Of a DNA stretch of 38,175 bases, positions 10,887 through 37,815 are shown piece after piece. The stretch is taken from NCBI GenBank assembly GCA_026396705.1, contig JAPLWE010000036.1, forward strand, positions 1 through 38,175. Reading direction: 5' to 3'. Both the position numbers and the translations under genes were made by a program. This DNA comes from Candidatus Gribaldobacteria bacterium (GTDB lineage: Bacteria; Patescibacteriota; Minisyncoccia; Minisyncoccales; CG1-02-41-26). Positions within the stretch are counted from its first letter, which is position 1, and each line of letters opens with the position of its first letter. The notes below the pieces were generated by a model. That model made no database searches and was not told the DNA's origin. It saw nothing but the letters and a program-made list of their open reading frames with translations.

Positions 10887-10924
10887 GGACTTATGGTGAT
10901 GTTAGGGGCTCGGAGAGTTAGTTT
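10887..10924 (-). repeat. Family-1 intergenic element, partial copy A (left arm only; contains the murJ stop codon)
   Basis: gacttatggtgatgttaggggctcggagagttagttt matches the left end of the full copies. Confidence 0.85.
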
Positions 10925-12585
10925 AATTGTAGCTTTTTTTTCAAAAAAGTTAATAGCTCTTTGCATAAAATAATCGGCTCTTTAACGCCCAATAGCCAAC
11001 AAGTTGTCAGGTAAACTGCTCCGGAAAACACAACCGTTAAAAACGCCTGCAAAAATATGCCCAAAACTGTATTAACAATTAAAAATGCTGCGCCTACCCT
11101 CAAAAAAATATAAGCGCTTGCCGACATTATCAAACAAGCCAGTAAAATTTTTATAATAAAAGAACGATCAAACAATGATTTGCCAGAAATATTTATTTTT
11201 CTTTGCAAACTATTTGATAACCAAAAAAATTGAATAATGGTGGAGAAAGATAAGGCCAGTGGCAAGGCTAAAATTGATAAATTATCTATGCCTTTTAGCT
11301 TAAACAAAAAAGAGAAAAAATTAGCAATCGCTTGATGGCTTGCTAGTAATTTCACCAATAACCACGCTGAAAGCAAGTTCAATAAAACCGACCAAACAGC
11401 AATTTTTACAGGTGTTTTGGTGTCATGTAAAGCATAAAACGCTCTAGCTAAAAGAGGAATCAAGCAAGCGGCAAAAATAGACAAGGAAAAAATTCCCAAA
11501 GCAGCCGCCGTCAAACGAGTTTCCCACCAGCCGAAGTAACCAGAGGCAGTTAACTGCGTGCCGTATAAAATTCTAATGATTTGCGCTCTTAAAATAAACA
11601 TCAAGCAACTTACTGGCGCAACGCATAAAATAACTTTTCTCAATACAGGCGAAATTGCGCTAAAAAACTTATCTTTATTGCCAGCAGCCGCATAACGGGA
11701 AAGAATTGGAAAAATAACAGCCGCAAATGGCACGCCAATCAAGCTCACTGGCACACCATAAAGATTGTTTGATAAATTAAAAATCTTGATAGAGCCAACC
11801 GCCAACATAGAGGCAATAGCAGTAAGTATTACTAAATTTAATTGATAGGCGGCCGATCCAAAAACGCGTGGTGTCATTAGCTTAAAAATTTTCCGCAATT
11901 CAGATGAGCGAAAATCAATTAATAACCGTGGGCTAAATCCCATTCTTAAAAGAGGGGGCACTTGAATTAAAAGATGCATCCCAGCCCCTAAAACAACCCC
12001 CCAAGCCAATCCCAAAAGCCCCATTTTTGGGAAAAAAAACAAAAGCCCAATAATAATACCCAAATTATAAAACAAAGGAGCCAATGAAAAAGCGACAAAA
12101 AAATTAAAATACTGCAAAACAGAAGAAAAAATCGCTGAAACGCCCAGGGCAATCGGACTGAAAAACATTATTCTAACTAAAGCGACGGTTTGCAACTTTT
12201 GTGGCAAAGAAAAGCCCGGCGCTATAACTTTGACGATTAGGGGCGCGAAAATAGCTAACAAAACAGATAAAATTACCAAGAATAAACCAAAAACAGTAAA
12301 AACATTATTAAACAAACGACGGGCTTCTGTCTGACTATTCTGAAAGGAATGAGCAAAAACCGGCAAAAAAGCCGCCACCACTCCCCCTGTAATTAAAAGC
12401 CCATAAACAAAATCAGGAATACGAAAAGCAGCCCAATAAACATCCGCTTGAGCATTACTTAAAAAGTTAGCCAATAGATTATCTCTTAAAATAGCTAAGC
12501 CATACCCTAAAAAAGTAGCAATTGAAACAAAAAAGACCGCTTTGTTAACGGTATGAGTTTGAAAATTTAAAATTTTCTTTAACAT
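10918..12585 (-). CDS. murJ: Lipid II flippase MurJ (MviN)
   Basis: ADVYWAAFRIPDF, LAWGVVLG, RAFYALHDTKTPV motifs; polytopic membrane protein. Confidence 0.92.
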   Translation of the reverse strand: MLKKILNFQTHTVNKAVFFVSIATFLGYGLAILRDNLLANFLSNAQADVYWAAFRIPDFVYGLLITGGVVAAFLPVFAHSFQNSQTEARRLFNNVFTVFGLFLVILSVLLAIFAPLIVKVIAPGFSLPQKLQTVALVRIMFFSPIALGVSAIFSSVLQYFNFFVAFSLAPLFYNLGIIIGLLFFFPKMGLLGLAWGVVLGAGMHLLIQVPPLLRMGFSPRLLIDFRSSELRKIFKLMTPRVFGSAAYQLNLVILTAIASMLAVGSIKIFNLSNNLYGVPVSLIGVPFAAVIFPILSRYAAAGNKDKFFSAISPVLRKVILCVAPVSCLMFILRAQIIRILYGTQLTASGYFGWWETRLTAAALGIFSLSIFAACLIPLLARAFYALHDTKTPVKIAVWSVLLNLLSAWLLVKLLASHQAIANFFSFLFKLKGIDNLSILALPLALSFSTIIQFFWLSNSLQRKINISGKSLFDRSFIIKILLACLIMSASAYIFLRVGAAFLIVNTVLGIFLQAFLTVVFSGAVYLTTCWLLGVKEPIILCKELLTFLKKKLQLN

Positions 12586-12612
12586 TGACAAAAATTAAAT
12601 GCTTGTTATAAT
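12585..12612 (+). promoter_or_regulatory. rnpB promoter
   Basis: TTGACA-N16-TATAAT with an extended -10 TG, 6 nt before the P1 helix. Confidence 0.8.
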
Positions 12613-12618
12613 TAAAAT

Positions 12619-13103
12619 GCCTTAGCAAATTAAGCAACTGCTGTGTTTATAATAACAAATTATGAGCACAGAGGAAAGTCCGAACTCCCCCAAGCGTATA
12701 ATTTATGCGTTTGGAGCAAGGTAGTGGGTAACACCCGCACGCGGTAACGCGAGAGTTGCGAGCAGAGACGCTCCAAGCTGAAAAGCAAAGAGCACCAAGA
12801 AATTTTCTTGGTGAATCTCGAGGGAAACCTTGAGGGTGAAACGGCTAAATACTTACCTGGGAGCAAGAGCAAACCAGACAGGAAATGCAGAGGTCGAAAA
12901 TACCGAGGGCAGACCTCCCTTAAACTGAATATTATATTTATTCAAATTAGAGGAGGTCTGCCCTCGGTATTTTTGACCCGACCTCTGCATTTCCTGTCTG
13001 GAAAAGTAGCTCGCATGACCCTAACAGCAATGTTAGGGCTAGATAAATGGTTGCACTCTGCTTTAAGCAGAGCACAGAATTCGGCTTACAAATTTGCTAA
13101 GGT
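12619..13103 (+). ncRNA. rnpB: RNase P RNA with a 128-nt hairpin insertion
   Basis: GAGGAAAGTCCGAACTC (CR-I), GGTGAAACGG, GGGAGCAAG, AGATAAATG, ACAGAATTCGGCTTA (CR-V); terminal P1 CCTTAGCAAATT/AATTTGCTAAGG. Confidence 0.95.
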
Positions 13104-13532
13104 TTTTTGTTTATTTTTTTGATCAAGCGCTTCATTAACCAAGTGGTCAGCTGCGCTGTTTTGTTCACGAGGTATCGCCACAAAATTAACAATTGAAAAA
13201 TCAATCAATAAATTCCAAGCCTCTAGAAATAGTGGCTGGATTTTTTCGCCATTTATTTTATAGCGATGAGATAATTGACGCACTAAAAGCTCTGAATCTG
13301 ACCTTACCTCAAAAACATACTGCTTAAGATTCTCTTTACCAAAAATCTGCTTGGCTTTTTTCAAAGCAAAAATTAAACCGCCATATTCGGCTTCATTATT
13401 GGTGGCAATGCCCATAGTTTCCCCGTAGCTCTTAATAACAACCCCATTCTCGCGACTAAAAACAACGCCAAAAGCAGCTGGTCCGGGATTGCCCCTTGAG
13501 CCACCATCAATATTAATTATTATTTTTTCCAT
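13086..13532 (-). CDS. rnhA: Ribonuclease HI family protein
   Basis: IDGGSRGNPGPA, TNNEAEY, DSELLVRQL, PREQNSAADHLVN. Confidence 0.9.
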   Translation of the reverse strand: MEKIIINIDGGSRGNPGPAAFGVVFSRENGVVIKSYGETMGIATNNEAEYGGLIFALKKAKQIFGKENLKQYVFEVRSDSELLVRQLSHRYKINGEKIQPLFLEAWNLLIDFSIVNFVAIPREQNSAADHLVNEALDQKNKQKTLANL

Positions 13533-36639: not shown

Positions 36640-36814
36640 GAGATGGTTGCAAAACTATTCCTACTGCAATTTTAGCTTTTTGGCTACGACTTCGTCGGGC
36701 TGGCGTAAAAAGATTTTCACCATAGCTGGGCTATGGCTCAAATCTTTTTTCTTGCCCTCCTTGTCTCGCTCAAAAATCTAAACTTTCGCTACGGAATAGT
36801 TTTGCAACCCTCTC
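36640..36814 (-). repeat. Family-2 long hairpin element with 17-bp perfect terminal inverted repeats (MITE-like)
   Basis: GGTTGCAAAACTATTCC (36645-36661) / GGAATAGTTTTGCAACC (36793-36809), plus nested internal stems. Confidence 0.8.
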
Positions 36815-36817
36815 TTT

Positions 36818-37282
36818 TTATTTATGACGAAGAAAAGGAGCTGGCATAACCCTAATTAGCTTAGCCTCTATTTGCCCGTTATTAGTTGGTTCGCCTATGA
36901 CCACCACCATATCATCAATTTGCAAATTATTTATTGTGATAGCCTCCTTAAGCCGATTAATAACTGTGCCATCCTTAACTAAAATAACTTTCTCAATATC
37001 TCCTTGTCCTTTAATCACCAATGTTGAGGGGGCAATTTTTATTATTTGCCCTACTGCGCCATTTGCCTCAATAAAATCTCTGTCGCCAAACCCGCCTGGA
37101 AAGCCGCCCTTTGGTCCACCAAAATTTTGATGATAATTATCACTCCAGTGGCAAGAAAAATTAGCTTTTTGAAAACCCACCATCATGCCTGCCTTAAAGA
37201 TAAACAAAAAAATAATCAATCCGCCAATCGCTAATAGAATTATTTTGAATGTTTTTGATTGAAAAAATTTGTCTATGTTCAT
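36818..37282 (-). CDS. Membrane-anchored hypothetical protein (DUF5666-like barrel)
   Basis: TM helix, then GQIIKI...DDMVVVIGEP...IEAKLIRV; same layout as 32463..32921. Confidence 0.75.
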   Translation of the reverse strand: MNIDKFFQSKTFKIILLAIGGLIIFLFIFKAGMMVGFQKANFSCHWSDNYHQNFGGPKGGFPGGFGDRDFIEANGAVGQIIKIAPSTLVIKGQGDIEKVILVKDGTVINRLKEAITINNLQIDDMVVVIGEPTNNGQIEAKLIRVMPAPFLRHK

Positions 37283-37641
37283 ATGTTTAAGTAATGCAAA
37301 CCTTTAATATTTTTAGATAAAAATCTAAGCGAACCCAAAATCGCCAATGAAACAACTCCTATAGCTAACAAGCCAGTTATTGGCAATGACTCCAGCAAAG
37401 ATAAGGAGAAATTATGCCAAGAAGCCATAATTATAGCGGTATCCGAAAACGCCAAAGAAAATAACTGAATAAATCCAGAACCAGCGAACCCGACATAAAC
37501 CATTTTAATCGCCGGAATCAAACCAAAAAAAGAAACAGCCAAAACAAGCGAAAAGCCAATGATTTTTCGCTTAAATATCATCATTTTCTGCTCCGCTTTA
37601 ATACGGCGCATAATTTTTTCAAGTAAAGTTTGTTCATCCAT
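37279..37641 (-). CDS. Two-TM hypothetical protein, possible anti-sigma factor
   Basis: Start ATG 37641 (MDEQTLLEKIMRRI); directly downstream of an ECF sigma gene; overlaps the next gene (ATGA). Confidence 0.65.
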   Translation of the reverse strand: MDEQTLLEKIMRRIKAEQKMMIFKRKIIGFSLVLAVSFFGLIPAIKMVYVGFAGSGFIQLFSLAFSDTAIIMASWHNFSLSLLESLPITGLLAIGVVSLAILGSLRFLSKNIKGLHYLNI

Positions 37642-37646
37642 ATTAG

Positions 37647-37815
37647 AACTTACGCTGATGTTAGGGGCTCGGAGAGTTAGTTTCAAGGAGACGCTCACTC
37701 GCTCCTGCGGCTCGTTCGCTTAGTTTTCGGCCTATTTTCCGCCAGTAGGCGGAACCAAGCAAATAGGCCTCAAAATACTCCTTGAAACTAACTTCCTCGC
37801 CCCTAACCCGTAATT
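37647..37815 (-). repeat. Family-1 element, full copy G
   Basis: Matches copies C, E and F; termini TTACG/CGTAA. Confidence 0.95.

Follow-up and report, generated by a model that had tools for sequence, protein, structure and literature searches.

We describe here a family of short, dispersed and folded repeats that was recognized on a 38,175-nt contig of Candidatus Gribaldobacteria bacterium (Patescibacteriota; contig JAPLWE010000036.1, analysed over its full length and hereafter called the window). Our analysis shows that this element, which is ~150–180 nt long and has no coding capacity, is a non-autonomous, insertion-polymorphic repeat whose family spans a class of Patescibacteria, and that all of its helices covary. 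The host genome (G000, in which the window is contig C38) comprises 847 kb on 64 contigs, with 39% G+C and 95% completeness. A covariance model (R1), built from 12 of its copies and used for all searches, detects 13 full copies on six contigs, which score 124–214 bits on one strand and at most 43 bits on the other. Mechanical repeat finding placed four full copies (200–214 bits with R1) and three partial copies in the window, all in one orientation, the sense strand of the model being the minus strand of the window. All seven lie between housekeeping genes (MurJ/LepA, PGK/DHH, SecA/SecD and others), so that the positions, the single orientation and the intergenic setting given in the original prediction, which had been made from the window sequence, are borne out. 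The copies of the host genome are mostly 85–98% alike and fall into two stem variants; such similarity indicates a recent burst of the element in this genome.

A mobile repeat with one covarying fold

The original prediction had proposed a search for empty sites in relatives, and these were found at all six sites that could be compared between close relatives, each of which has at least one relative without the element; we therefore conclude that the element is mobile. Full copy 1 (17269–17447, minus strand, R1 score 199.9 bits) is shared with one congener (G001), and its site lacks the element in two others (G002 and G003). It is bordered by an 11-nt direct repeat, at 17255–17265 on its 3′ side (AGATTATTTTC on the plus strand) and at 17449–17459 on its 5′ side. 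This stretch is present in a single copy at the empty site of G003, which identifies the flanking repeat as a target duplication and corrects the earlier statement that no clear target-site duplication is visible. For full copy 4 (37643–37820, minus strand, 213.9 bits), both G001 and G002 have an empty site, and a clear duplication is lacking. The complete genome G053 provides two further sites, those of its copies at 466594 and 474983, at which the congeners G123 and G161 lack the element (flank identity ~90%). Two copies of G001, on its contigs C14 and C44, face empty sites in the host genome (on C21 and C42, respectively); one of them, just 5′ of a start codon, is accompanied by an ambiguous repeat of the ATAT type, and no repeat borders the other, which was inserted between a terminator hairpin and a stop codon. 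Apart from copy 1, duplications at the junctions are ambiguous (ATAT-type) or absent and have no constant length, and neither a shared target word nor a fixed tetranucleotide target was found across the six junctions. The insertions fall in AT-rich spacers beside start or stop codons.

At the site of full copy 2 (29402–29578, minus strand, 202.1 bits), the element is missing in G002, and G001 and G003 hold an unrelated insert of ~700 nt (part of this stretch is masked with N in G001). The presence of this unrelated insert in congeners marks the divergent spacer as a recurrent landing place. The insert (G001:C7, G003:C1) carries a small open reading frame (ORF) and a copy of a second hairpin family that is described below.

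Every copy exhibits the same architecture on the sense strand: an outer stem that varies between copies is followed by a long stem, and this leads to a three-way junction from which two hairpins branch. The long stem is closed near its base by GC-GA-GG facing CC-GA-GC. Hairpin A is flanked by G.A and interrupted by a 7-nt one-sided bulge (GCWUGGU), and hairpin B (GC-GA...GA-GC) carries a loop that reads CGCUGGR or CGCNGGA. In the predicted fold of full copy 4, in which all parts are on the minus strand, the two halves of the basal tandem G.A lie at 37795–37800 (GCGAGG, 5′ half) and 37667–37672 (CCGAGC, 3′ half). Hairpin A (UUU-GA-GGCC...GGCC-GA-AAA) occupies 37724–37774, with the one-sided 7-nt bulge GCUUGGU at 37754–37760, and hairpin B (GC-GA-AC-GA-GC, loop CGCAGGA, GC-GA-GU-GA-GC) occupies 37693–37719, with its predicted loop at 37703–37709. 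When the fold of one copy was compared with shuffled sequences, the z-score was −7.4 under RNA and −7.7 under DNA parameters, and none of 200 shuffles was as good.

We aligned 63 matches obtained at E ≤1e-9 from 59 sources (12 from the host genome and 51 from relatives, in all ~40 genomes). This threshold removed the reverse-strand matches; the duplicate locus L038 was left out and the thirteenth copy of the host genome was not among the sources. Over the 50 pairs of the model (3025 cells), 91.2% of the cells pair, as compared with 66.4% in shuffles and 38–50% with slid partners, and the covariation score is 0.634, against 0.196 in shuffles and ~0.1 with slid partners. Fitting the alignment to the model biases it toward pairing; the slid controls were drawn from this same alignment. 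Changes on both sides were found in 49 of the 50 pairs. The covariation originally claimed from a few copies thus holds in a larger alignment, and the stem variants quoted for it are present, among them the ACTAATTTCAAAGAG / CTCTTTGAAATTAGT variant of full copy 3 (32282–32460, minus strand, 201.3 bits). The complete genome G053 contains seven copies with 45–84% mutual identity, in which the stems have been kept through compensatory changes. Several old lineages of the element therefore exist side by side and are still mobile.

The three tandem G.A motifs on which the original prediction was built are real and conserved in the alignment, but their number was underestimated, as a fourth one lies within hairpin B. 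In other copies, C-G pairs take its place, so that it behaves as part of a helix. The basal GA is conserved in 49 of the 63 sequences on the 5′ side and in 50 on the 3′ side. In hairpin A, the 3′ GA is found in 60 sequences and the 5′ side ends in A in 60, with GA in 25, CA in 21, GGA in 9 and GCA in 5; the GA of hairpin B is present in 46 (5′) and 41 (3′). The bulge conforms to NGCWUGG in 51 sequences and has no residue opposite to it in 60, and the core of the hairpin B loop reads GCUG in 40 and GCNG in 54.

The fold had been assigned to the minus strand of the window, and this strand specificity extends to the family. The strand that carries the G.A motifs is the more stable one in 60 of the 63 sequences with RNA parameters and in 59 with DNA parameters, the mean gap being −6.7 and −2.9 kcal/mol, respectively. 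Mismatches of the G.A/A.G type outnumber U.C/C.U by 108:20, and G.U cells outnumber A.C cells by 31:4 in hairpin A and by 10:3 in hairpin B (41:7 for both inner hairpins together). The strand asymmetry is real but not uniform across the fold: the long outer stem shows no wobble bias (G.U to A.C, 37:34), and 26 A.C cells occur in the three-pair junction helix, which is probably mis-registered in one subfamily.

With R1, we could identify the family in 16 of 41 genomes of near relatives (E ≤0.01) and, at E ≤1e-5, in 56 of 151 genomes of an order sample, 41 of 151 of a class sample and nine of 151 of a phylum sample, six of the latter being outside the class. The order, class and phylum counts were scored with the stricter filters of Infernal, and all four counts include the host genome; they are lower bounds, because R1 was built from copies of the host genome alone. 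Relatives contain one to nine copies per genome, as compared with 13 in the host genome. Within the genus, these 13 copies stand beside six or more in G001 and one each in G002 and G003. At the gathering threshold of Rfam 15, the window contains only RNase P, DUF3800-V and tRNAs and no match to the element; two copies searched at E ≤10 gave chance-level matches only, and 16 diverse loci searched at E ≤0.05 gave only a tRNA. We did not detect similar DNA in annotated plasmid and phage collections. An exact match to the ends of a known insertion sequence (IS) or to an Rfam family, which would have made the element a known one, was thus found neither in Rfam, nor in plasmids and phages, nor at the IS ends of the host genome. 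No description of such an element appeared in those parts of the literature that full-text searches reached.

Genomic setting and orientation of the copies

The window encodes LepA, MurJ, PGK, SecA/D/F, MurB, an ABC exporter and the RNase P RNA. Full copy 1 ends 15 nt before the start codon of the gene downstream of its 3′ end (15953–17254), and full copy 2 lies 12 nt upstream of the start of a Wzy_C-like gene (27168–29390). Full copy 3 is flanked by convergent genes, at 31005–32276 (plus strand) and 32463–32921 (minus strand). Full copy 4 is bounded by an intrinsic-terminator-like hairpin (37869–37842) and an ATG at 37641, and the 5′ side of its outer stem is incomplete. A mechanically listed ORF with a GTG start (37279–37698, minus strand) runs into this copy; its true start is likely the ATG at 37641, which is kept in G001 and G002. 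Full copy 4 also includes a promoter-like match (TTGAAA-17-TAACAT, 37658–37686, minus strand) that points toward the downstream gene and agrees at nine of 12 positions, with 0.7 such matches expected by chance. This is a weak lead, and the match was absent from copy 17269 when looked for there.

Among the partial copies, that at 10885–10924 (minus strand; element positions 138–177, the 3′ end) was recovered by repeat finding, overlaps the MurJ stop codon and lies upstream of LepA. A second one (14698–14753, minus strand; element positions 111–166) is located between the PGK and DHH-family genes, and a short remnant (21206–21229, minus strand; element positions 137–160) between SecA and SecD. 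A signature of 5′ truncation was considered for partial copies and ruled out, as five retain the 3′ end and two the 5′ end.

Outside the window, the neighbours are diverse housekeeping genes as well, for instance rpoB/rpoC, atpD, gatB, pyrG, glyA, rplB, groL and purB/purE, and no constant partner gene was found among the neighbours of the element. An apparent run of neighbours of ~450–500 aa turned out to consist of unrelated housekeeping proteins. We recorded the orientation of the nearest ORFs (≥100 aa) at 52 sites in relatives, after dropping one partial copy and one duplicate locus. With respect to the sense strand, the upstream and downstream neighbours are both opposite at 29 sites and both in the same direction at five; they are same/opposite at seven sites and opposite/same at one, and an ORF is missing on one or both flanks at 10. 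The downstream ORF is convergent with the element at 39 of the 46 sites that have one, and in relatives the 3′ end of the element is usually within 30 nt of the stop codon of the convergent gene. The same-genus sites in this census (L010, L011, L014, L026 and L034) are mixed, L011 being same/same and L026 opposite/opposite.

The orientation of the element is strongly biased, but the bias is reversed between the genus of the host and the rest of the class, and no single rule of replication or transcription fits both. In G053, the genes follow the replichores, with an origin near 290 kb as judged by GC skew; the sense strand is opposite to the genes in all seven copies and is thus on the leading-strand template. 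In the host genome, 10–11 of the 13 copies are co-directional with their neighbours, their 3′ end being 2–20 nt from the next start codon, and the sense strand is on the G-rich strand, as judged by the sign of GC skew, in 10 clear and two weak cases of the 13. The most diverged copy of this genome (C30:18091) has the antisense orientation typical of the class and shares its contig with two young copies in sense orientation. As to the replication-strand signal suggested in the original prediction, the bias is strong and follows replichore or GC skew within single genomes, but its direction is opposite between lineages.

Heptamer repeats TACGAAT (ATTCGTA on the gene strand) are located 5′ of the element at five loci, L085 (in G053), L067, L080, L078 and L022. 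They lie just upstream of start codons and are themselves scattered among numerous loci in G123 and G161. A role as promoter or leader motif in these bacteria is possible.

Candidate mechanisms of mobility

Enzyme families were counted by hand in the order sample, in 56 element-bearing and 95 other genomes, ignoring kinship between genomes. Matches to Y1_Tnp, a family of HUH enzymes, are present in 41 of the 56 element-bearing genomes and in 37 of the 95 others (odds ratio ~4.3, chi-square ~16.6, by hand arithmetic and again ignoring kinship), and this is the sole enriched family of the five tested. The corresponding numbers are 11/56 and 27/95 for RVT_1, 11/56 and 21/95 for rve, 4/56 and 5/95 for TnpB and 2/56 and 2/95 for DDE_Tnp_4. 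In the host genome, a Pfam scan covered 443 ORFs, i.e. the 29 main ORFs of the window and 414 of the 779 ORFs of at least 100 aa, these 414 being the ORFs outside the window that lack a G053 homologue, so that ORFs shared with G053 are outside the scan. The earlier statement that no transposase is visible holds for the 29 window ORFs. On contig C54, an IS200-like Y1 gene (15503–15958) has matching end hairpins that are unrelated to the element. A perfect palindrome of 56 nt (5643–5698 and 6413–6472), found again on C46 and C43, borders the RAYT-like gene of C58 (5718–6419), another such gene on C18 (4265–5011) is flanked by 89-nt repeats (4137–4225 and 5063–5151), and the RAYT-like gene of G053 has its own REP hairpin (arrangement at 379829–380397).

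These RAYT-like Y1 genes (233–248 aa), with REP-like palindromes of their own that recur elsewhere, represent the classical REP/RAYT arrangement in genomes of the candidate phyla radiation (CPR). No paper describing this arrangement in CPR genomes was found in the portion of the literature accessible to our searches. The scan also revealed two reverse transcriptases in the host genome, at C33:2312–3709 and C18:211–1209, one of them adjoining a bAvd-like gene and the second in the vicinity of Laminin_G_3 proteins; both loci look like diversity-generating retroelements.

Our preferred reading, which we hold tentatively and give rather less than an even chance, is that a non-autonomous mobile element is recognized and moved as a folded single strand, likelier DNA than RNA, by a HUH enzyme of the Y1 type acting in trans. 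The fold would be conserved through this recognition, and copies that lose it would stop propagating and soon be deleted from these compact genomes. The enzyme would most likely be an IS200/RAYT-like Y1 endonuclease, for which the repeated CGAG/GAGC modules with G.A on three arms are putative binding sites. If the element affects host genes, for instance through an outward promoter in the genus of the host or through a hairpin after stop codons elsewhere, such effects would be by-products that filter the orientation of the surviving copies. We lean toward single-stranded DNA (ssDNA) and a HUH enzyme because Y1_Tnp is enriched, reverse transcriptases show no association, the outer stem is wobble-neutral and target duplications are mostly absent. 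An outer stem without wobble bias is what one would expect of arms that serve as duplex ends as well, which argues for DNA rather than RNA. HUH Y1 elements mostly lack target duplications, and this fits most sites of the element. The orientation by replichore in all seven G053 copies, and by the sign of GC skew in most copies of the host genome, also speaks for this reading. Of the original prediction, a selected, strand-specific fold in a dispersed, non-autonomous element is supported by the covariation, the conserved G.A, the strand asymmetry and the presence or absence of copies between congeners. Its REP/REPIN-like element moved by a HUH enzyme is still the foremost idea, on the circumstantial evidence that Y1_Tnp genes are common in the order and enriched in element-bearing genomes, but the flanking of RAYT genes by copies, which defines REPINs, was not observed.

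Several observations weigh against a Y1 enzyme and an ssDNA substrate. A Y1 match is lacking in 15 of the 56 element-bearing genomes, and the enrichment could reflect a general richness in mobile DNA. Among the matches listed, none of the elements comes closer than 3 kb to a Y1 match, and the smallest distance is 6 kb, in G029. The original prediction had suggested looking for copies that flank RAYT or IS200-like genes; the hairpins that flank the Y1 genes of the host genome and of G053 are different ones that belong to these genes. Y1 transposition is not expected to yield a target duplication, and copy 17269 has a clean one of 11 bp. The opposite orientation in the genus of the host and in the rest of the class is not predicted by one enzyme mechanism. 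Finally, an RNA would equally be compatible with the conserved loops and with the enrichment of G.U in the two inner hairpins. We noticed, on G029:C3, two diverged copies of the element in divergent orientation (66246–66426, minus strand, and 66645–66825, plus strand), ~220 nt apart and 6 kb from the Y1 gene.

The element could instead be a mobile gene for a structured non-coding RNA, with the G.A strand transcribed from its own promoter where it is antisense and by read-through in the genus of the host, and with the three-way junction predicted to act as an RNA–protein or catalytic unit in spread, in a host function or in defence. We regard this as a possible but doubtful explanation, nearly as good as that of ssDNA moved by a HUH enzyme. 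The architecture is of the kind seen in functional RNAs, with covarying helices and a conserved bulge and loops (GCWUGGU, CGCUGGR, GCCGAG), and it is conserved across a class. The ratio of G.U to A.C in the inner hairpins and the strand gap, which is larger with RNA than with DNA parameters, point the same way, and the TACGAAT heptamers just 5′ of the element in several genomes could be a promoter. However, no conserved promoter or terminator was found at a fixed distance, the outer stem lacks the wobble bias seen in the inner hairpins, and no Rfam family matches. Moreover, loci turn over between congeners, so that a mover would still be needed, and reverse transcriptases are not enriched in element-bearing genomes. 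No RNA run was listed among those that contain the stretch, and three metatranscriptome runs from the same sample contained only 2–9 spurious fragments of 20–35 nt and are uninformative on expression.

It appears quite unlikely to us that the element is a miniature inverted-repeat transposable element (MITE) moved by a DDE transposase via its terminal inverted repeats, much like Correia or ERIC elements, the fold and the orientation being the result of selection on the effects of a transcribed hairpin on genes. The 11-bp duplication, the insertion into AT-rich spacers beside start and stop codons and the outward promoter-like site of copy 37643 would all be in line with this scenario, and candidate enzymes are present in the host genome: an IS5-like DDE_Tnp_4 (C42:19232–20065), an IS4/5 fragment (C35) and two rve-type transposases (C53 and C54). 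In addition, DDE_Tnp_4 matches occur in the two genomes of the genus that have many copies (G000 and G001), and there is none in single-copy G002 and only a sub-threshold one in single-copy G003. Yet the IS of G001 and that of the host genome share no nucleotide similarity, and in the order sample DDE_Tnp_4 was found in only four of the 151 genomes and rve in 32, neither being enriched. A clear duplication is lacking at the other sites. The ends of four IS candidates of the host genome resemble those of the element no better than 5% of random windows do; a likeness noticed by eye between the ends of the IS5-like element of C42 and the TAGG..CTTGC..TGAT end of our element did not exceed chance. 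Recognition of inverted repeats would also leave the covarying inner hairpins, the conserved G.A and the strand asymmetry unaccounted for. For the burst in the genus of the host alone, a DDE-moved MITE could nevertheless be responsible.

Least probable in our estimation is an immobile cis-element of the host that is kept locus by locus as a terminator, an mRNA-stabilizing hairpin, a processing site or a portable promoter. The copies are indeed always in tight intergenic spacers with their 3′ end within ~30 nt of a gene end, they follow stop codons outside the genus and precede start codons within it, and partial copies that retain the 3′ end sit directly upstream of genes. A fixed cis-element is, however, largely excluded, because the same sites are empty in congeners at ~90% flank identity. 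Furthermore, the neighbours have no common function, the near-identical copies of the host genome indicate recent duplication, and the opposite orientation to transcription in different lineages would not be tolerable for a cis-acting RNA signal.

Known repeats, other window features and wider meaning

The element fails the defining tests of the REP/REPIN, ERIC/Correia-type and IS200/IS605-derived kinds of repeats, from which it differs in having a branched fold with conserved loops, in its G.A modules and in the range of taxa that it spans. Similar to REP and REPIN sequences with their RAYT enzymes, it is a short, non-coding, non-autonomous hairpin repeat of intergenic spacers, mostly without target duplication, in a lineage that is rich in Y1_Tnp (78 of the 151 order genomes) and in a host whose RAYT-like genes have their own palindromes. 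REP sequences begin with the tetranucleotide GTAG at their 5′ end, and many copies of the element have GTAGG or TTAGG at one end, a reminiscent feature. In contrast, REP sequences are palindromes of 20–40 nt and the element is four to six times longer. Nor does it consist of two inverted REPs, as REPINs do; its two inner hairpins, which branch from a three-way junction, are unlike each other and have conserved loops. No Y1 gene of the host genome, of G053 or among the matches listed was seen to be flanked by it, its conservation extends over a class rather than a genus, and one copy has an 11-bp duplication.

ERIC/IRU, Correia (CREE/NEMIS) and RUP/BOX repeats are imperfect palindromes of 100–180 bp in transcribed spacers, mostly without a known autonomous partner. 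The element resembles these families, in the general outline given here, in its size, its location in spacers, a possible outward promoter and plausible orientation-dependent effects on genes. It is unlike them in its branched covarying fold, its tandem G.A modules, its strand asymmetry, its much wider taxonomic span and the lack of a constant TA-type duplication. With the palindrome-associated transposable elements (PATEs) of the IS200/IS605 group, it would share a folded single-stranded substrate and a HUH Y1 enzyme, as proposed here, and it shares an orientation linked to the replichore in single genomes. However, it forms one continuous palindrome without distinct left-end and right-end hairpins, no fixed target is seen, one copy has the 11-bp duplication, TnpB is rare in the order (9 of 151 genomes, the host not among them), and the IS200-like hairpins of the host genome are unrelated to it. 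A MITE of a DDE transposon would differ in turn, as the element ends match those of the four IS candidates of the host genome no better than chance and the duplication length is not constant.

The inverted terminal repeat (ITR) of parvoviruses such as adeno-associated virus (AAV) is a T-shaped hairpin with a long stem and two small arms, with GAGC-type repeats that bind the HUH protein Rep. The element recalls it in size and T shape, in broad outline, and several members have GAGCGAGCGAGC-like runs in hairpin B, but it is a dispersed chromosomal repeat and not a genome end, and no Rep gene was found, although no search aimed at one was made. Integron attC sites are imperfect palindromes between packed genes that are recognized as a folded strand through their core sites, and the GTTAGGG...CCCTAAC of the element recalls such core sites as they are generally described. 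The order of the core-like motifs is nevertheless reversed relative to RYYYAAC...GTTRRRY, and the loops and bulges of the element are conserved in sequence. Furthermore, the copies lie in housekeeping operons on six contigs, without cassettes, and no integrase match of the Phage_integrase type was found among the 443 ORFs scanned in the host genome.

Several other features of the window are worth recording. A second, unrelated family of dispersed hairpins, ~185 nt long with the ends GAGATGGTTGCAAAACTATTCC / GGAATAGTTTTGCAACC, is represented at 36636–36820. It has six copies in the host genome and more than 40 matches in G001, is also present in G002 and G003, and the G001 site corresponding to 36636–36820 is empty. 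Its minus strand carries a UUU-GA-G...-GA-AAA hairpin, and the family may share the G.A-module design. The class A RNase P RNA (12622–13104, plus strand) measures 483 nt against 367 positions in the model, i.e. ~115 nt extra. A DUF3800-V RNA (24434–24529, plus strand, 75.5 bits) adjoins a gene for a DUF3800 protein (24537–25226, minus strand), and two more DUF3800 genes are present in the host genome outside the window. Finally, a 1426-aa FG-GAP-repeat protein and a neighbouring ORF (521–5493, minus strand) contain coding repeats with a periodicity of ~180 nt, which repeat finding resolved into families D3, D6 and D5, the last at 5064–5439.

CPR/Patescibacteria genomes are among the most streamlined and are usually considered repeat-poor. 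The present family is a structured repeat maintained throughout a class, with turnover from species to species and with a burst that has brought it to 13 copies in a genome of 0.85 Mb. Such repeats break assemblies and adjoin the start and stop codons of essential genes, and they therefore matter for the quality of metagenome-assembled genomes (MAGs) and for operon punctuation. The alignment of 63 sequences, with its 49 of 50 covarying pairs and its conserved loops, makes the question of ssDNA versus RNA directly testable, with the Y1 proteins of the host genome as candidate partners. One may also imagine, as an unlikely proposal, that the element is a mobile unit of a novel type that is particular to Patescibacteria, in which the T-shaped, G.A-clamped junction would itself be the active part, either as an ssDNA ‘mini-ITR’ handled in trans by a HUH enzyme or as the RNA of a mobile ribonucleoprotein or ribozyme. 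If this were true, the ssDNA version would be a bacterial chromosomal analogue of the hairpin ends of parvoviruses, nicked and rejoined by HUH enzymes, and a G.A-module design common to the sister family at 36636–36820 would point to class-wide, structure-coded selfish elements in the smallest bacterial genomes.

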